A stretch of 64,000 nt of DNA, taken from positions 42,176 through 106,175 of the forward strand of contig JADFUR010000065.1 of the NCBI GenBank assembly GCA_015222055.1, read 5' to 3'. Source of the DNA: Bacteroidota bacterium. Its GTDB lineage: Bacteria; Bacteroidota; Bacteroidia; Bacteroidales; B39-G9. Below the pieces are notes generated by a model. It saw nothing but the letters and a program-made list of their open reading frames with translations, did not search any database and was not told the DNA's origin. Shown here in pieces: positions 46,548 through 53,508 of this stretch. Numbering within the stretch: the stretch's first letter is position 1; each line of letters opens with the position of its first letter. The translations under genes and the position numbers were made by a program.

Positions 46548-49547
46548 TTATGGTCTTGCTATTCCGTTTATAAATGTTTCTACAAATCCTAAAATCTTTG
46601 CTGTTACTCTTTCGGCTATTGTTTTTCTTTCTTTCAAACTTGGTCTTTTGTTTAGCATTCCAATAATTTCATCTCTTAAGGGTTTCTTTTCGGTGAACAG
46701 GTAGTTCCCAATTACTTCCTGTAATTTTTCAGAATCCAAATTTTCTTCTTTACTAAGTTTCGCTATTGCCAAAAGTCTTTCTTGATTCCAATAGTTTTCA
46801 AATTCTTCCGGAATATTATCGGAATCATCAATTTCAGGTAAATTTTCTTGTATAAACCTTTCAATTAGCTCTCGTTTGCTACGCATGCGTGCATCACCAG
46901 CCATTAATTCAATAATTGCTTTTTTCTGATTCTCATGTTCTTCTTCGCTTGCATCTTTCAGTTTAGCAAGTAGTTTCAATATGTATGCAACATTTATTTC
47001 GTCTCTATGAATTAATTCTAATTCAAAATCAATATCCTGTAAAATTGAAACTTTCTCTTTTTGATGTGCCGATTTTGCTTTGTCGTAAAGGTCAAGATAT
47101 TTACTTTTATAATCTTCAAAATTTTGCTCTTCCATTGACAAATCAGCAAAATCAAACTCAGTGAAAGTTGCCAATACGTTTTTCAAACGCATTAATTCTC
47201 TGAATGCTTTTATAAATTCGAGTTCTTTTTCTTCATCTTGTAAATCGTTTACACTGCCCACCGTTGGTGTAATTTGCAATAATTCATTAAATGCCTGATT
47301 AAATTTAACAACATACTCTTCATAAGGCTGAATTATTATTTCATCTTTAGCATTTTTGTTCGAGAAAAGTGAAATTGCTTCGTCAGTAGCTGCTTTTAAA
47401 TTTCGGAAACAGACAATATTACCCTGCGATTTTAATTCGTTTAAAATTCTGTTTGTTCTTGAATATGTCTGTATTAAACCGTGATATTTCAAATTCTTAT
47501 CAACATAAAGAGTGTTTAATGTTTTACAGTCGAAACCCGTTAAAAACATATTAACTACCAACAAAATATCAATTTGTTTTTGCTTTACTCGCTTTGCAAC
47601 ATCATTGTAATAGTTGTAGAAACTCTTACTATCTTTTGTAGTGAAGTTTGTGCTATATTGCTTATTGTAATGCCCAATAAATTCTTCGAGATAATCTCTA
47701 CTTAATTGTGAATTATAAGTTGTGAATTGTGAATTGTTTTGGGATTGATATTCAGCTTGTGGTTCAGCTGCAATTTTAGATGATGTTTCCTGAGCGGAGT
47801 CGGATGTTTCCTGAGCGAAGTCGAAGGAAACCTCATCATCAATAAAAGCACTTCCTATAGCGTCTTTATCATCTTCGTTTGCCTGATAAGAAAAAATAGT
47901 AGCCACTCGCAAATTATGTTCACCATTTTCTTTTTTCTGACGAAACAGTTTATAATACTCAATTAAAATATCGATGCTGGAAACAGCAAAAATGCTTGTA
48001 AACTCTCTGTTGTGGGTTTTACGATTATGATTTGTTATAATGTAATCGGTAATATTATTTAAACGCTCCGGGGCATTCATCACCTCTGCTTCGTCAATGC
48101 CTTCGACAAGCTCAGCAGAACTGCCTTCGACAAGCTCAGGAGAACTGCCTTCTACATTAATATCTAAAATATTGTCTTTCTTTTTAAAAGTGCTTATATA
48201 TTCAATAGATAGCTTCAATACATTTTCATCACGAATTGCATCAGTAATTACATATTGATGAAGCTTTTTATCAAACAACATTTTGGTTGTTCGTTTTCCA
48301 AATTCGTTTTTACCTGCATTCTTTTCAAATATTGGTGTGCCTGTAAAACCAAACATCTGACTAGCTGTAAAAAAAGTTTTAATATCTTTATGGGTTTTCC
48401 CAAATTGCGAACGGTGGCACTCATCAAAAATGAAAACAATGTGTTTATCTTTGAGAGTTTCCATTCTGTTTAAATACCTGTTTTTGCAGATGGCGGAATC
48501 TAATTTTTGAATAGTAGTAACAATAATTCTGCTATCACCAATCATCTGTTTAACCAATGTATTGGTATTGTTTGTGCCGTCGATACTTCCTTTGCTAAAT
48601 GCGTTAAATTCTTTGGTTGTTTGATAATCTAAATCTCTACGGTCAACTACAAAAACAACTTTATACACTTTTGGAAAATTGGTGAGAATTTGAGCTGTTT
48701 TAAACGAAGTTAAAGTTTTGCCCGAACCTGTTGTATGCCAAATGTAACCGAACTTATTTGTGGTTTGAACTCTTTCAATAATGGCTTCTACTGCATAAAA
48801 TTGATATGGACGAAGCACCATCAGAATTTTATCAGATTCGTGAATTACAATGTATTTGCATATCATTTTAGAGATATGACAAGGCTCTAAAAAAATATCG
48901 GTAAAATCGGAAAGTTGAGTAATAAGATTATTATCTACATCGCTCCAATAAAAAGTTTGTTTAAACGAGCGTGCTTTTATAGGGTTGTTGGCATAGTATT
49001 TTGTATTTACGCCATTGCTGATTACAAATATTTGGATAAACTGGAATAAGCCGTAACCAGCCCAATACGAATGTCTTTCGTAACGATTGGTTTGATTAAA
49101 AGCCTCTTTTAATTCTAATCCACGGCGTTTTAGCTCTATTTGAACCAATGGCAAACCGTTTATCAAAATAGTAACATCGTAGCGGTTTTTATAAGAACCT
49201 TCCATTGTTACTTGTTGAGTAACCTGAAACTGATTTTTACACCATTGTATTTGATTTATTAATTCAATGGTTTTGTGTTCGCCTTTATCATTGGTAAAAG
49301 GAACACGGTCACGCAATATTTTGGCACGTTCAAAAATATTGCCTTTGTTGATATAGTTTAATATTTGTTTAAAATCATTATCGGATAGGACACATGGCCG
49401 TGTGCTTGTACTGTTGTGAATTTCCAATTGTGATTTTAGATTAGCCAACAAATCGTTTTCATCTTTTATGACCACATATTTGTAAGCCAAATTTTGTAAT
49501 TGAGCAACAAGATTATTTTCTAATATTTGTTCGGCTTGGGTTTTCAT
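46548..49547 (-). CDS. hsdR: Type I restriction enzyme R subunit
   Basis: N-terminal PD-(D/E)xK region (YDVTILINGLPLVQIELKR) and SF2 motor motifs (TTGSGKTLT, FDECHRSQFG, GFTGTP, TGFDCKTLNTLYVDK). Start placed at the Met whose ATG overlaps the upstream TGA (ATGA at 49547-49544). An alternative ATG is at 49568. Confidence 0.93.
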   Translation of the reverse strand: MKTQAEQILENNLVAQLQNLAYKYVVIKDENDLLANLKSQLEIHNSTSTRPCVLSDNDFKQILNYINKGNIFERAKILRDRVPFTNDKGEHKTIELINQIQWCKNQFQVTQQVTMEGSYKNRYDVTILINGLPLVQIELKRRGLELKEAFNQTNRYERHSYWAGYGLFQFIQIFVISNGVNTKYYANNPIKARSFKQTFYWSDVDNNLITQLSDFTDIFLEPCHISKMICKYIVIHESDKILMVLRPYQFYAVEAIIERVQTTNKFGYIWHTTGSGKTLTSFKTAQILTNFPKVYKVVFVVDRRDLDYQTTKEFNAFSKGSIDGTNNTNTLVKQMIGDSRIIVTTIQKLDSAICKNRYLNRMETLKDKHIVFIFDECHRSQFGKTHKDIKTFFTASQMFGFTGTPIFEKNAGKNEFGKRTTKMLFDKKLHQYVITDAIRDENVLKLSIEYISTFKKKDNILDINVEGSSPELVEGSSAELVEGIDEAEVMNAPERLNNITDYIITNHNRKTHNREFTSIFAVSSIDILIEYYKLFRQKKENGEHNLRVATIFSYQANEDDKDAIGSAFIDDEVSFDFAQETSDSAQETSSKIAAEPQAEYQSQNNSQFTTYNSQLSRDYLEEFIGHYNKQYSTNFTTKDSKSFYNYYNDVAKRVKQKQIDILLVVNMFLTGFDCKTLNTLYVDKNLKYHGLIQTYSRTNRILNELKSQGNIVCFRNLKAATDEAISLFSNKNAKDEIIIQPYEEYVVKFNQAFNELLQITPTVGSVNDLQDEEKELEFIKAFRELMRLKNVLATFTEFDFADLSMEEQNFEDYKSKYLDLYDKAKSAHQKEKVSILQDIDFELELIHRDEINVAYILKLLAKLKDASEEEHENQKKAIIELMAGDARMRSKRELIERFIQENLPEIDDSDNIPEEFENYWNQERLLAIAKLSKEENLDSEKLQEVIGNYLFTEKKPLRDEIIGMLNKRPSLKERKTIAERVTAKILGFVETFINGIARP
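47701..47832. repeat. In-frame repeat insertion inside hsdR (aattgtgaatt-type repeats plus 2 x 21-bp gatgtttcctgagcg[g/a]agtcg)
   Basis: Tandem 21-mers at 47782-47802 and 47803-47823, closing hairpin gtttcc...ggaaac. Translated as FAQETSDSAQETS...QSQNNSQFTTYNSQLS. Locally much more GC-rich than the gene. Confidence 0.8.
48099..48152. repeat. In-frame 24-bp tandem repeat inside hsdR (gccttcgacaagctcag[c/g]agaact x2.25)
   Basis: Read directly from the sequence; translated as EGSSPELVEGSSAELVEG between conserved HsdR blocks. Confidence 0.85.
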
Positions 49548-50188
49548 ATTACTTTTTTGATTTGCCACAATAATCGTTCACGGTCGTATTTAGTTTGCCT
49601 ACCATATGACATAATTCCATTGAGATAAAAATAAGTTTTGGTTTTATCTACATACAAACCAGTTTTGTCCTCAAATTGTAATTGTAAATATCCTTTTAAA
49701 ATATCAGCTGTAATAACATTATTGGTAATAACTAGCTTTGGAGAAATGAATTTTAAAATTTCAGAAAAAACAGATAGGTGTTTATTGTGTAAAGGTTTAA
49801 GTAAACCATTGTCACCTATTAACTCTTTAACAATAATTTTGGCAGTTTTGTAACTCATTTGGAACAAATCACAATGTTCAAACTCTACACCTAAATCATC
49901 AGCGATACTCGAAATGGGTTTGTAGTAACGTTTGTATTGACCATTTCTATCAGGCACCCCATCGCCAAAAATTGCCTGGAATTCTTGTTTAATTTTATGT
50001 TGGATTTCGACTTCGCTAAAACTCGTAATAGCAGGCTTTGGTGTTATGTCGCCCGATGGATTTAGTCCAACGAACAGTATTTTGGCATTGGTATTTAATG
50101 GATGTATAAATGTTGGCATATTTCCCCGAAGATTGTCGGGTAATTGATGCCACCATTCTAATATCTCCTTATTTAAAATCTCTTCCAT
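49544..50188 (-). CDS. Hypothetical 214-aa protein embedded in the type I R-M operon (possible uracil-DNA-glycosylase-superfamily fold)
   Basis: Its start abuts the hsdS stop (TAAATG) and its stop overlaps the hsdR start (ATGA). KILFVGLNPSG resembles UDG/MUG motif A (G-[IL]-NP-[GS]), but this is a weak, memory-based call. Confidence 0.35.
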   Translation of the reverse strand: MEEILNKEILEWWHQLPDNLRGNMPTFIHPLNTNAKILFVGLNPSGDITPKPAITSFSEVEIQHKIKQEFQAIFGDGVPDRNGQYKRYYKPISSIADDLGVEFEHCDLFQMSYKTAKIIVKELIGDNGLLKPLHNKHLSVFSEILKFISPKLVITNNVITADILKGYLQLQFEDKTGLYVDKTKTYFYLNGIMSYGRQTKYDRERLLWQIKKVI

Positions 50189-51925
50189 TTAAACAAACAT
50201 TTTTTGTAATAAACCCTTTTTAAATAATTGTGAATTATCAATTGTTGATTGTAAATTATTTATGCTTTTATCTATTGATGAAAGGAAATTGGCTATTTTT
50301 TGTTGTTCTTCAAATGATGGTATTTTAACATTAATTTTTGAAAAATTACCAACTGATATCGTGAACCTTGTGCTTCCTGTAGAATAACTTGATAGTTGTT
50401 TCAAAACAGATGGAATATTGCAAAAATAATGTGAATACAGTAAGTCAAGTTTTATTTTTGGTCTAAACCTCATTAAATGATAACTAAATAAAGTATCTTC
50501 CAAATCCTCAAAAATTACAACAGAATGACCTATATCAGTGGGCGTTTCAGATGATGGTGTAAACAAAATATCACCTTTTCTTAAATTCGTAGATTTAATT
50601 TGATTTTCTTTTGCGGTAACAATTTGTAAGTTTTCACGAGTAGTGTTGTTAATGTTTTCGTGTCGATAAACATTCATATAATTAACAAGATATATTTGCT
50701 TTTCATTTTCTTTTGAAAGTTTATCTACGCTACTTGTTTGAAATGCACCAATCTCCCCCAACCTCTTCACTTCCCAATCAGGTGGTTCGACAAGCTCACC
50801 AGCCTTATTTTTGATTTTAAACCGTAACTCTTGCGAAAATAATTTTTGCATTACCCCTTTTTTGTATTGCTCTAATTCTGTTTTCTTTTCTTGCAAAAGG
50901 TTTATGCGTTTGTCAACTGCGGTGAGGAAAGTGGCTATGCGGGTTTGTTCTTCCAGAATAGGGACATTTATATCAAGTGTTTTTAATTGACTTGCATACA
51001 AATGAACTACGGAAATACCTTGCGACAATCTTGCGATATTAGTTTTTTGAGCATTATTCAAGTAGTATGATAAAAAAATACCGTCCATCTCAGATTTAAT
51101 AATATTTAAATCTCCACCTAATGCCACACCCGATTTTTCAACGCAAGAAGCAGTTGCAATATCAATTTGAGTTTCCCCAGATGCAGGAATGATAACATCA
51201 TTAGCTTCACTTAATAAAAGTTCTGCTTCATCAATATTTGTTTTTGAAACAATTTCAGTGATTACTTCTGAATATTCCGTATATAATTCTCCGTATCGAA
51301 TACATTCGGTTGCTCCGTCTTCTGAAATATCTGCTTTTGAGATTCCTTTCCCTTTACTAAAAGTAGCAATTGCACCAAGTTTATCAGGATTCCATTCCCC
51401 CTCAAACTCAGGAAACCGTAATTGTGGCACATTGTGGCTGAGCGGAGTCGGGTGGCTGAGCGTAGTTGGGTGGCTGAGCGAAATAGGGTGGCTGAGCGTA
51501 GTCGAAGCCACGTTCTCTTTCGTTTCGGCTCCGCTCAACGACCGTTCACTCCCCGACGACCGTTCACTCCCCGACGACCGTTCTTCCCCCGCTGCCTGAG
51601 CGGAGCCGAAGGCAGCCGATTTAAAAGCTTTATGTGATGTTTCATTCAAACACATGGATAATTCGTGCAATTTTTCCGGCATATTGTTAATCAAAGCTTC
51701 TTTCTTTTTTCTGCTCCATCCTTGCACTTGTTTTTCTCTGTAAAAAGCATTGTCTATTCTGTCGAATTCTTCAAAATAAACTAACTCTACAGGTAAATGT
51801 TTTTTAGTATGATTTGCTCCTTCACCATTTTGGTGTTGATGTAATCTTAGTTCCAGATATTTTGTGCTTCCTGTATAATAACTGTCATCTGAGCACTTTA
51901 AAATATACATATATCCTCTTGTCAT
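50189..51925 (-). CDS. hsdS: GIY-YIG nuclease domain joined in frame to type I specificity subunit HsdS
   Basis: aa 1-~95: GIY-YIG (GYMYILKCSDDSYYTGSTKYLELRLHQH...YREKQVQGWSRKKKEALI). aa ~100-165: repeat-encoded linker. aa 166-578: two-TRD HsdS beginning VPQLRFPEFEGEW. No stop codon between the parts. An in-frame GTG at 51430 could start a conventional HsdS. Confidence 0.85.
   Translation of the reverse strand: MTRGYMYILKCSDDSYYTGSTKYLELRLHQHQNGEGANHTKKHLPVELVYFEEFDRIDNAFYREKQVQGWSRKKKEALINNMPEKLHELSMCLNETSHKAFKSAAFGSAQAAGEERSSGSERSSGSERSLSGAETKENVASTTLSHPISLSHPTTLSHPTPLSHNVPQLRFPEFEGEWNPDKLGAIATFSKGKGISKADISEDGATECIRYGELYTEYSEVITEIVSKTNIDEAELLLSEANDVIIPASGETQIDIATASCVEKSGVALGGDLNIIKSEMDGIFLSYYLNNAQKTNIARLSQGISVVHLYASQLKTLDINVPILEEQTRIATFLTAVDKRINLLQEKKTELEQYKKGVMQKLFSQELRFKIKNKAGELVEPPDWEVKRLGEIGAFQTSSVDKLSKENEKQIYLVNYMNVYRHENINNTTRENLQIVTAKENQIKSTNLRKGDILFTPSSETPTDIGHSVVIFEDLEDTLFSYHLMRFRPKIKLDLLYSHYFCNIPSVLKQLSSYSTGSTRFTISVGNFSKINVKIPSFEEQQKIANFLSSIDKSINNLQSTIDNSQLFKKGLLQKMFV
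51434..51616. repeat. GC-rich tandem and hairpin repeats forming the GIY-YIG/HsdS linker
   Basis: 4 x 18 bp gtggctgagcg-nnnnn-gg (51434-51511, LSHP(T/I)x repeats). About 2.5 x 18 bp cgacgaccgttcactccc (SERSSG repeats). Hairpin gctgcc-tgagcggagccgaa-ggcagc (51591-51616). Confidence 0.85.
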
Positions 51926-51936
51926 ATCAATATATT

Positions 51937-53508
51937 TTAAAATGGTGTTTCAATATTTAATTCCTCACAAAAACCGGCAATCTCTTTGTTTACCTCTTCT
52001 AAATCATTATTAATAGTTTTCAGATTATCAGAAACCTCTTTTAAATCAACAGGCTCTTCCTCTTCAAAAGTATCAACATATCTTGGAATATTCAGGTTGT
52101 AGTCGTTTTCGGCAATCTCTGCCAAACTTGCTACATAAGAATATTTATCTTTGGTTTGTCTAGAGCGGTAAGTATCAATAATTTCATTTACATCCTCATC
52201 ACGCAATTGGTTTTGGTTACCGTTTTTTACGAAATGCTCATGTCCGCTTGCATCAATAAAAACTACATTTTCATCAGCTTCACGGCATTTTTTAAACACC
52301 AAAATACAAGTAGGAATACTTGTGCCGTAAAAAATATTGGCAGGCAAACCAATAACGGCATCTAAATAATTAAGTTCTTTAATTAAATATTTACGGATAA
52401 CTCCTTCGGCTGCACCTCTAAACAAAACACCATGTGGTGCTACGGTTGCCATTGTTCCGTTGTCTGCCAGTTGGTAAATCATGTGGGTTACAAATGCGTA
52501 ATCGGCTTTCGTCTTGGGTGCTAATCGTCCATATTGACTAAATCTTTCGTCAGTACTGTTTAATGGATTTGTATCACTTTTCCAATGAGCCGAAAATGGC
52601 GGATTGGCAACAACGGCTTCAAATCGTTTATCGAGATGTTGCGGATTTTCCAAAGTGTCTTCTTGCCGTATATCAAACTTACGGTAATGAACATCGTGCA
52701 AAATCATATTCATACGAGCAAGGTTGTAGGTGGTACGGTTTAGTTCTTGTCCGTAAAATTCGCTTACATCACTTACTTCTCTTGCCACACGCAAAAGCAA
52801 AGAACCCGAACCGCAGGTTGGGTCATAAACCGATTTTAATTTTGTTTTTCCTGTAGTAACAATTTTTGCCAGTATTTTAGAAACCTGTTGTGGTGTATAA
52901 AATTCTCCTGCCGATTTTCCTGCACCTGCTGCAAACTTTGCAATCAAATATTCGTAAGCATCTCCCAAAACATCGGCTTCTACATCGTCAAGTTTGAAAT
53001 CTATTTTGTCGAGATGGTTTAATATTTTTACAATTACTTCGTTTCTGGCTCCAACCGTTCTACCGATTTTAGTAGAAGTTAAATCCATATCCTCAAACAA
53101 AGCGTTAAAATCATCTTCCGATTCTGTTCCCATTGTGCTTTGCTCAATTTGGTTCATCACGGCTTGTAAATCTTCAATTATGTAGTTGCTTTCACTTTCG
53201 GTGTCGGCATTTCCTTTTTTTGCAAGTTCAGAAAATAGTTCACTAGGTTTTAAAAAGTAACCCAATTTCATTAAAGATTCTTCTTTTAGGGCATCCAGAG
53301 TTTCTGTGTTGGTTACTTTTTTATAGTCTGTTACTTTCTCTCCTTCAAGTAGCCCATTGGCATATAAATATTGTTTTTCGCTCAGGTATTTATAAAAGAT
53401 AAAACCGAGAATGTAGTCTCGGTAATCGTCTGCACTTATTTTTCCTCTCAGTAGGTTTGCAATTCCCCAAAGTTGAGCTTCCAATATTTTTTTTTGGTCT
53501 TCTGACAT
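51937..53508 (-). CDS. hsdM: Type I restriction-modification N6-adenine DNA methyltransferase subunit
   Basis: HsdM N-terminal domain (LWGIANLLRG), motif I DPTCGSGSLLL, motif IV VANPPFS; 523 aa. Confidence 0.95.
   Translation of the reverse strand: MSEDQKKILEAQLWGIANLLRGKISADDYRDYILGFIFYKYLSEKQYLYANGLLEGEKVTDYKKVTNTETLDALKEESLMKLGYFLKPSELFSELAKKGNADTESESNYIIEDLQAVMNQIEQSTMGTESEDDFNALFEDMDLTSTKIGRTVGARNEVIVKILNHLDKIDFKLDDVEADVLGDAYEYLIAKFAAGAGKSAGEFYTPQQVSKILAKIVTTGKTKLKSVYDPTCGSGSLLLRVAREVSDVSEFYGQELNRTTYNLARMNMILHDVHYRKFDIRQEDTLENPQHLDKRFEAVVANPPFSAHWKSDTNPLNSTDERFSQYGRLAPKTKADYAFVTHMIYQLADNGTMATVAPHGVLFRGAAEGVIRKYLIKELNYLDAVIGLPANIFYGTSIPTCILVFKKCREADENVVFIDASGHEHFVKNGNQNQLRDEDVNEIIDTYRSRQTKDKYSYVASLAEIAENDYNLNIPRYVDTFEEEEPVDLKEVSDNLKTINNDLEEVNKEIAGFCEELNIETPF

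Follow-up and report, generated by a model that had tools for sequence, protein, structure and literature searches.

A GIY-YIG nuclease gene and its hairpin-encoded tail in one reading frame with the specificity subunit of a type I restriction-modification operon

Results

An HsdS joined in frame to a GIY-YIG nuclease

The stretch of DNA analyzed here, referred to as the window, comprises 64,000 nucleotides (nt) from a Bacteroidota bacterium (GTDB lineage Bacteroidia; Bacteroidales; B39-G9; GenBank assembly GCA_015222055.1, contig JADFUR010000065.1, positions 42,176 to 106,175). Its minus strand carries a type I restriction-modification operon in the order hsdM, an open reading frame (ORF) of 578 amino acids (aa), an ORF of 214 aa, and hsdR. 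The 578-aa ORF joins a small GIY-YIG nuclease domain, through a GC-rich linker built of hairpins and tandem repeats, to the specificity subunit HsdS with its two target recognition domains (TRDs). We propose, with a probability of roughly 0.7, that a mobile cassette consisting of the nuclease gene and its hairpins has entered the hsdM–hsdS junction and that HsdS is read as a tolerated fusion to it. The genes and domains of the operon are as follows:

51937–53508, minus strand: hsdM, 523 aa (Pfam N6_Mtase, E 1.9e-110; HsdM_N, E 1.3e-17), with its stop codon TAA at 51937–51939
50189–51925, minus strand: single 578-aa ORF encoding GIY-YIG domain, hairpin-encoded linker and HsdS
51653–51925, minus strand: GIY-YIG nuclease domain of the prokaryotic Slx1-like/UPF0213 type, aa 1–91 (Pfam PF01541)
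51431–51652, minus strand: linker, aa 92–165, from three hairpins and two 18-bp tandem arrays
50189–51430, minus strand: HsdS proper, aa 166–578, with two TRDs and central and C-terminal conserved helices (Pfam Methylase_S, twice)
49544–50188, minus strand: 214-aa ORF between hsdS and hsdR, family unassigned
46548–49568, minus strand: hsdR, about 1000 aa (Pfam HSDR_N, SWI2_SNF2, T1R_D3-like, EcoR124_C)

An initial annotation of this DNA had described a complete small GIY-YIG domain that continues, without a stop codon, through 18-bp repeats into a two-TRD HsdS, and each part of this description was recovered. The ATG of the fusion ORF lies 11 nt past the hsdM stop codon; Pfam places the GIY-YIG domain at aa 4–75 (E 4.8e-16), followed by two Methylase_S stretches (E 8.6e-36); Tandem Repeats Finder detects the repeats encoding LSHPxx and SERSSG in 3.9 and 2.6 copies, respectively; and an in-frame GTG does stand directly before PQLRFPEF, at 51428–51430. 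The HsdS part has the hallmarks of a type I specificity subunit, with two TRDs, helical separators (long helices at residues 324–363 and 538–577 in the AlphaFold model), and hsdM and hsdR alongside. By Pfam, all three hsd genes are full-length, stop-free and match their families end to end. The nearest relative that we found is L114, a metagenome contig from an independent assembly, on which hsdM and hsdR accompany the same fusion together with another accessory gene. Because L114 has the same uninterrupted frame, and because about 25 further GIY-YIG::HsdS fusion proteins turned up in a protein collection (in a search limited to long proteins), the fusion frame is not an artifact of assembly.

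The nuclease domain finds its best matches in the Protein Data Bank in 1ZG2 (E 4.7e-12) and 1YWL (E 1.5e-9), and aligns to the UPF0213 protein BH0048 with 49 bits (E 4.7e-12). Residues Y7, Y17, G19, R27, H31 and E64 are invariant among its relatives, and the C-terminal Asn is not conserved, position 80 being N, G, E or K; this is the pattern of a minimal prokaryotic Slx1-like/UPF0213 nuclease (Tyr, Tyr-x-Gly, Arg, His and Glu, no conserved Asn). Pfam detected no NUMOD or helix-turn-helix (HTH) DNA-binding module in the fusion protein, and no NCBIfam model matched the nuclease. With 10 synonymous and 3 non-synonymous codon differences from L114, the domain is under purifying selection, and its catalytic residues are intact. 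Members of its clade are mostly stand-alone proteins of 96–190 aa, tail included. AlphaFold modeling based on 16 fusion proteins gave a structure that is confident for aa 1–91 and 169–578 and falls below a predicted local distance difference test score (pLDDT) of 50 for aa 92–168. Nothing in this model speaks against a two-module protein with a disordered tether.

The linker consists of hairpins and their amplified pieces

Reaching 57–62% G+C, against 29.4% for the genome, the linker constitutes the longest GC island of the entire assembly (214 bp). It had been annotated as a GC-rich repeat linker, which it is; its hairpin nature, and the presence of additional in-frame copies in hsdS and hsdR, had gone unnoticed. 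The elements are:

51591–51616, minus strand: hairpin H1, gctgcct-TCGGCTCCGCTC-aggcagc in gene orientation, 7-bp stem
51538–51583, minus strand: 18-bp array, 2.6 copies with 100% matches (ERSSGS; Tandem Repeats Finder), in the spacer between H1 and H2
51520–51541, minus strand: hairpin H2, loop as in H1 but inverted, 5-bp stem
51488–51511, minus strand: hairpin H3, gtggct-TCGACTACGCTC-agccac, 6-bp stem
51434–51504, minus strand: 18-bp array, 3.9 copies (LSHPxx; Tandem Repeats Finder)
50783–50801, plus strand: in-frame, inverted hairpin tggt-TCGACAAGCTC-acca in the HsdS central region between TRD1 and TRD2, translated GELVEPP
47806–47831, minus strand: hairpin gtttcct-TCGACTTCGCTC-aggaaac in hsdR, inside a 21-bp array of 2 copies (47782–47823)
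48098–48156, minus strand: 24-bp array of 2.5 copies in hsdR (SSPELVEG), containing the loop TCGACAAGCTC with stems of just 2–3 bp

The 14-nt core of H2 is the exact reverse complement of that of H1, and slippage that multiplied the 3' half of H3 gave rise to the LSHP array. In the window, the hairpins adjoin the nuclease gene on its 3' side only. Together with the hairpin at 50783–50801, the tail brackets TRD1, one on either side. The inserts in hsdR and hsdS keep the frame and sit in linker regions, and HsdR of L114, 85% identical, has gaps exactly at both hsdR inserts, the one at 48098–48156 amounting to 16 residues. The fold energy of the entire linker resembles that of shuffled sequence (z −0.37); therefore, it is the specific hairpins that matter rather than overall structure.

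A hairpin family with a conserved loop and covarying stems

To what extent do such hairpins accompany the nuclease gene elsewhere? We collected 80 loci from species-representative genomes by means of the aligned nuclease domains of relatives, namely those most similar to a query alignment built from HsdS-fused proteins, and counted hairpins over 81 loci. Among the motifs common to the DNA beside the clade's genes are CTCAGCCACC and TTCGACTCCGCTCAG. The family they define has a stem of 5–9 bp of nearly any sequence, closed by T·A, and a conserved loop of 11–12 nt, TCGRSN(2-3)SCTC. Searching with the loop alone, we found that 80 of the 81 loci, which come from many phyla, have the motif no farther than 350 bp from the GIY-YIG gene, at a density of 6.1 per kb compared to 0.20 per kb over the remaining DNA of these loci, a 31-fold enrichment. 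Across the loci, hairpins occur in both orientations and on both flanks of the gene.

Covariation was assessed in 124 distinct instances picked by the loop only, over their eight flanking positions. Stem cells are paired in 77.8% of cases versus 58% in shuffles, with 200 double-sided changes versus 76. The covariation score of 0.506 compares with 0.18 in shuffles; none of 500 shuffles scored as high, and controls with slid positions ranged from 0.07 to 0.18. Since the stems covary while their sequence is variable, the stem is selected to pair, and the loop is the conserved part.

Hairpins also occur within the neighboring genes. Of 18 other hsdS genes next to a cassette, 5 contain an internal hairpin, four of them at a relative position of 0.40–0.52, and cassette-free orthologous loci contain just 2 hairpins in 90.6 kb. 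By these sequence comparisons, the hairpins appear to have spread locally within cassette-bearing hsd loci. A genome-wide spread of the kind known for REP/RAYT systems was considered and rejected: the genome contains 14 hairpins of the family with a stem of at least 4 bp, and 8 of these lie at two cassette-bearing type I loci.

Of the tandem arrays in translated tails or neighboring ORFs, 20 of 21 have a period that is a multiple of three, versus 20 of 45 outside ORFs (Fisher P 8e-5), a contrast that is partly definitional, being built into the way ORFs are delimited. As a separate observation, hairpin arrays that lie outside ORFs (L088, i.e., G239:C6, as well as L005 and L035) have periods of 19–21 bp, for example 19 bp in L005 and 20 bp in L035.

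Insertion and distribution of the cassette

As one possibility, the initial annotation had raised the insertion of a GIY-YIG cassette and its repeat tail at the hsdM–hsdS junction, and had proposed a comparison of orthologous hsdMS loci. From 401 genomes of the order we took the 29 HsdM C-termini most similar to that of the window and checked 14 junctions. In 10 of these the insertion is absent and hsdS directly follows hsdM (in eight, within about 5–35 nt); one has a GIY-YIG cassette, and three have other genes. In the empty-site orthologs, hsdM is 58–79% identical and hsdS starts with its own ATG, beginning M(E)Kxx..N(I/V)PxLRFPEF; empty sites were seen only in orthologs with an HsdM C-terminal identity of at most 79%. 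In the window, the usual HsdS start after hsdM, M-x(1-8)-N-[IV]-P-x-L-R-F, is absent and replaced by the cassette, which fills the exact place of the short HsdS leader, the frame continuing into NVPQLRFPEF. HsdS proper thus has neither the usual M-x(1-8) leader nor an ATG of its own.

A second copy in the same genome, 76% identical, is found at another type I locus, L002 (G000:C39:2888-6163). Here the order is hsdM, an ORF6N gene, the GIY-YIG cassette and hsdS, the latter two unfused with a stop/start overlap, ATGA. The layout is like that of the window: a hairpin, an 18-bp array (STTKET, five copies) and an inverted hairpin. The empty sites, this second unfused copy and the frequent position of the cassette upstream of hsdS described below all speak for the proposed insertion. 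The genome contains a third, distant GIY-YIG gene as well, L003, which is 38% identical and has a lysine-rich tail.

The clade comprises at least 585 loci at 70–88% protein identity, mostly from Bacteroidota, along with metagenome-assembled genomes labeled as other phyla. It is present in 45 of the 401 genomes of the order, usually in single copy, and was not found in the one same-genus genome searched (88% complete). Plasmid and viral contigs yielded only distant relatives (at most 49% and 45% identity, respectively) and no evidence of carriage by phages or plasmids.

Compared to L114, third codon positions diverge by 11.6% in the nuclease gene, versus 28.9% in hsdM and 34.8% in hsdR (binomial P about 5e-5). 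In 60-nt windows, identity to L114 is 92–100% over most of 51990–51440, as opposed to 75–85% in the last ~200 nt of hsdM, and the high-identity tract begins about 50 nt inside hsdM. These values suggest that the cassette either arrived after the two operons had separated or has been homogenized since.

Which protein is made?

L114 retains the fusion frame through considerable change. Indels of 15, 18 and 54 nt in the tail are all multiples of three and keep the frame; relative to the window, the ERSSGS array is shorter by one unit and the LSHPxx array by three units (the 54-nt gap). Both TRDs have been replaced, again with the frame retained. At 84–87% nucleotide identity, synonymous and non-synonymous differences number 133 and 44 in hsdM and 291 and 101 in hsdR. 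A similar picture is presented by the proteins P0003, P0004 and P0005, whose nuclease domains are almost the same and whose hairpin tails resemble one another, with TRDs that differ.

One option raised in the initial annotation was that HsdS is made from the internal GTG. This did not hold up. The codon at this position (51428–51430) is ATA in L114, and the 25 nt upstream of the GTG have a G+C content of 64%, when the corresponding segments of the 1,423 long ORFs of the genome have a median of 16% and a maximum of 52%. The 25 nt upstream of the nuclease ATG, at 16% G+C, are typical of the genome. Because L114 has ATA in place of the GTG, and because the context of the GTG start falls outside the range of the genome, HsdS is most likely translated as a fusion from the nuclease ATG.

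In an alternative scenario, the tailed nuclease and the specificity subunit would be translated separately, the latter as HsdS from the GTG at 51430 or as tail–HsdS from the ATG at 51655, and the long ORF would be an illusion of gene calling. Both codons are present in frame, and at most other loci the nuclease ORF terminates at the hsdS start or shortly ahead of it, in many cases with an ATGA overlap, such that separate products are the norm. At this locus, however, no stop codon separates the two parts, so translation initiated at the nuclease ATG necessarily yields the fusion. The GTG is disfavored by the findings just described; the in-frame ATG (51653–51655, residue 91), which may still serve as a start, is preceded by 44% G+C, above the 99th percentile of the genome (40%). 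We regard separate products as improbable here.

Association with hsdS and frequency of fusion

Among the 80 loci, the neighbors of the nuclease gene point to a preference for type I loci. The downstream neighbor is HsdS in 18 of 69 cases (26%; 17 without the genome studied here), and the upstream neighbor is HsdM in 15 of 75 and HsdR in 4 of 75. The N-termini of the HsdS proteins found next to it are of several unrelated types (PxLRFPEF, KGWEIKKLGE, SEWKE and IPEDWEV); the association therefore arose more than once.

Among the hsdS-adjacent copies, 2 of 17 are fused, and the remainder are separate genes, often with stop/start overlaps. In the order-wide sample, which is unbiased, open frames of at least 300 aa contain 6 of the 53 copies. 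Read-through fusions are hence a minority state, about 1 in 8 to 10 cassette copies. Besides HsdS, the search of long proteins turned up fusions of this nuclease with GHMP kinases, ThiE, adenosine deaminase, CobJ, PurE, DprA, an integrase and others, the partners always being joined through hairpin-encoded peptides. The linkers, about 35 to about 230 residues long, have nothing in common beyond the hairpin motifs. Such diversity of partners, combined with the minority status of fusion, is the pattern expected from accidental read-through of stop-poor, GC-rich DNA.

In four genomes of the order sample, the nuclease domain was also observed inside open frames of about 900 aa (G248:C1:16511, G335:C4:5692, G337:C135:34249 and G200:C230:4971). 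Like P0089, with 959 aa, these may reflect a fusion with a large protein that has been conserved.

Other features of the operon and the assembly

The 214-aa ORF at 49544–50188 has no matches in Pfam or NCBIfam. The content of the slot between hsdS and hsdR varies, L114 having an Abi_C protein and L116, a complete genome with the fusion layout, three unrelated genes in this place; it is a variable accessory slot in operons of this type. A 41-nt GC-rich sequence, GGGCTTTACTTACGTGAGCTCTCAGGCTCGGTTCAGCCCGG, occurs at or near many contig ends (C3:6, C39:6, C42:19, C111:6, C81:304 and C112:32402) and marks a multi-copy element that breaks the assembly.

Discussion

Our analyses revealed a continuous GIY-YIG–HsdS frame conserved in a relative, a hairpin family with a covarying stem, orthologous junctions lacking the cassette, and an overall rarity of fusion. 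On this basis, we propose the following model for the origin of the locus. A cassette consisting of a ~90-aa, Slx1-like/Ssn-like GIY-YIG gene and its cognate hairpins would spread horizontally and would have inserted at the hsdM–hsdS junction of the type I operon. The GC-rich linker would represent DNA-level cargo, namely three hairpins and 18-bp pieces amplified by slippage. With the first codons of hsdS lost, and with a GC-rich tail that is stop-poor and in frame, the nuclease ORF would run on into hsdS. The predicted product is a protein of 66 kDa with a folded nuclease, a disordered tether of ~75 residues and a normal HsdS. By analogy with the Ssn enzymes, the nuclease would act on its own hairpins, and cognate hairpins in single-stranded DNA are the expected substrate. 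The start codon used, this substrate and the manner in which the cassette moves are what we infer. The fusion itself looks like a tolerated by-product of insertion, neither the purpose of the cassette nor built by selection.

Several points weigh against this model. The step from ORF to protein is an inferential one, and in-frame alternative starts exist (ATG 51653–51655 and GTG 51428–51430). With only 14 hairpins of the family, the genome offers no sign of genome-wide spread. The 26% association with hsdS may exceed the true value for the entire clade, the query having been built from HsdS-fused proteins; the array periods are subject to the definitional reservation made above; and the low synonymous divergence of the nuclease gene could equally reflect constraint at the DNA level. 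Lastly, we found no direct-repeat target duplication and no closely related empty site that would define the ends of the cassette.

Could the fusion instead be a functional innovation, in which the tethered nuclease works within the type I complex under HsdS targeting? The M2S complex might gain HsdR-independent cleavage, or nicking of the hairpins that flank TRD1 might drive the exchange of specificity cassettes. Consistent with such a role, the roughly 25 GIY-YIG::HsdS fusions appear independent of one another, one of them residing in the complete genome of the cultured Tenacibaculum maritimum; the fusion persists through TRD swaps; the domain retains its catalytic residues and is under purifying selection; and in the structural model the folded nuclease is free on a long tether. 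The hairpins bracketing TRD1, and the internal, mostly central hairpins of other cassette-adjacent hsdS genes, would fit as well. On the other hand, fusion is rare even next to hsdS, the nuclease joins ThiE, adenosine deaminase, CobJ, PurE, a GHMP kinase and others no less readily, as expected of accidental read-through, linker lengths vary widely with only hairpin motifs in common, and most of the clade consists of stand-alone genes in unrelated contexts. We therefore consider a functional innovation unlikely. Of the genuine nuclease–HsdS fusion envisaged initially, the ORF is real and conserved in its lineage; a designed two-nuclease enzyme does not follow, given that only 2 of 17 and 6 of 53 copies are fused. 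It is similarly doubtful that the bias of the cassette toward the 5' end of hsdS serves a function, be it that the TRD1-bracketing hairpins and a hairpin-directed single-strand nuclease promote or gate specificity exchange during recombination with incoming single-stranded DNA, or that HsdS directs HsdR-independent cleavage by M2S. A decaying locus, in which the insertion disabled hsdS and left the open frame as a functionless remnant, is very improbable: hsdS has lost its own start and repeats have entered hsdR and hsdS, but all three hsd genes are full-length and stop-free with family matches over their whole length, L114 keeps them open at 84–87% nucleotide identity with mostly synonymous change, and the inserts preserve the frame within linker regions.

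What is the relevance of a tolerated fusion of this kind? A repeat with a putative role at the DNA level, as the cognate hairpin of a nuclease, would end up in protein, forming a disordered linker and loop insertions in three subunit contexts. HsdS appears to depend on the start codon of a selfish gene, which would make it a case of host-gene capture. The example also cautions that such domain fusions and low-complexity linkers need not be designed architecture. The attraction of the clade to the hsdM–hsdS junction is strong and so far unexplained. Finally, the locus and its relatives supply natural nuclease–HsdS fusions that are open to activity assays; HsdR-independent cleavage by M2S, if true, would be a natural analog of engineered chimeras between GIY-YIG nucleases and DNA-binding domains.

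Comparison with known systems places the cassette among several kinds of mobile or inserted elements. Like the Seg nucleases of T-even phages (e.g., SegB, PMC2330249), it is an intergenic nuclease gene, with a putative presence/absence polymorphism between conserved genes, and the tract of raised identity reaches about 50 nt into the upstream gene. Unlike Seg proteins, the nuclease here has no NUMOD, HTH or zinc-finger module, and its tail is repeat-encoded and predicted to be disordered; no close relatives were found on the phage contigs or plasmids searched. The position of the cassette also resembles that of restriction-linked ORFs of type I loci, in that it occupies an accessory slot such operons often offer.

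With respect to the hairpins, REP/RAYT systems share the tie between a repeat family and one enzyme gene; RAYTs are Y1 transposases, not GIY-YIG nucleases. Rickettsia palindromic elements (RPEs), attributed to Ogata et al. in 2000, are reportedly palindromic repeats inserted in frame in genes and translated, and the short in-frame palindromes found here at tolerant sites (hsdR, the center of hsdS, the linker) are likewise translated as extra peptide. RPEs are not known to be tied to an enzyme. In contrast to REP/RAYT systems and RPEs, there are 14 copies in this genome, not hundreds.

A direct precedent is MCA0838, the HsdR of Methylococcus capsulatus, which contains an Slx1-like domain in frame that is missing from an 80%-identical homolog (Dunin-Horkawicz, Feder, Bujnicki, BMC Genomics 2006, PMC1564403). 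Its authors read the domain as a very recent insertion, maybe irrelevant to the enzyme, and also reported Slx1-like fusions to methyltransferases (PMC1564403). The shared features are a minimal Slx1-like domain in frame in a type I subunit and a close homolog without it, and the structures 1ZG2 and 1YWL, to which the window domain is most similar, belong to the bacterial Slx1 family of that paper (PMC1564403). The domain is internal to HsdR there and N-terminal to HsdS here, and no hairpins, linker origin or site preference were described in that case. A search of one literature library retrieved no paper that joins GIY-YIG nucleases with HsdS fusions or with GC-rich repeats in Bacteroidetes.

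A further comparison is with Ssn, single-domain GIY-YIG proteins of CDD cd10448 (GIY-YIG_unchar_3), the clade that includes SsnA; NTS/SRM hairpins flank their genes, and they cut single-stranded DNA beside these hairpins (Chenal et al., Nat Commun 2025, PMC11893778). What is conserved in NTS is the stem together with a 5' CGTC tag, and cleavage was reported not to depend on the identity of the loop; restriction-modification operons, Bacteroidota and fusions are not mentioned in that paper (PMC11893778). The published SRM consensus, HGTCWYN(0-2)YYVSBRHN(0-5)WNVSBRGN(0-2)RNCYNB, has no sites in the 81 loci, none in 51300–52100 and 2 genome-wide. A scan for NTS in 401 genomes of the class of G402 (labeled Hydrocarboniphaga, a gammaproteobacterium) gave one hit, yielding the NTS-flanked, Ssn-type protein L115; the Neisseria-type SsnA, sought through the same scan, was not recovered. 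L115 and the window domain are 35% identical (E 2e-10). The alignment to BH0048 scores only 22 bits for L115 versus 49 bits for the window domain, which by sequence seems somewhat closer to UPF0213 structures than to the Ssn-type protein. As an observation apart, the genome studied here (G000) contains another dispersed family of GC-rich hairpins, CGTCATTGCGATCCGCCAGCTGGCGGA..AGCAATC, whose CGTC tag recalls NTS-type repeats, for example at C101:89524, C106:12868, C38:10944, C14:31796, C23:3665 and C9:51696.

The likeness of the cassette to Ssn extends to the protein, a GIY-YIG nuclease of ~90–100 aa with no DNA-binding domain, to the gene, flanked on one or both sides and in both orientations by cognate short hairpins, and to a wide, patchy spread across phyla. 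The differences are that the window protein has 578 aa, in place of a single domain of ~94–100 aa, and that here the loop is conserved and the stem free, as opposed to the conserved stem and CGTC tag of NTS. Our findings thereby extend the Ssn picture to a large, mostly Bacteroidota clade with a different hairpin logic.

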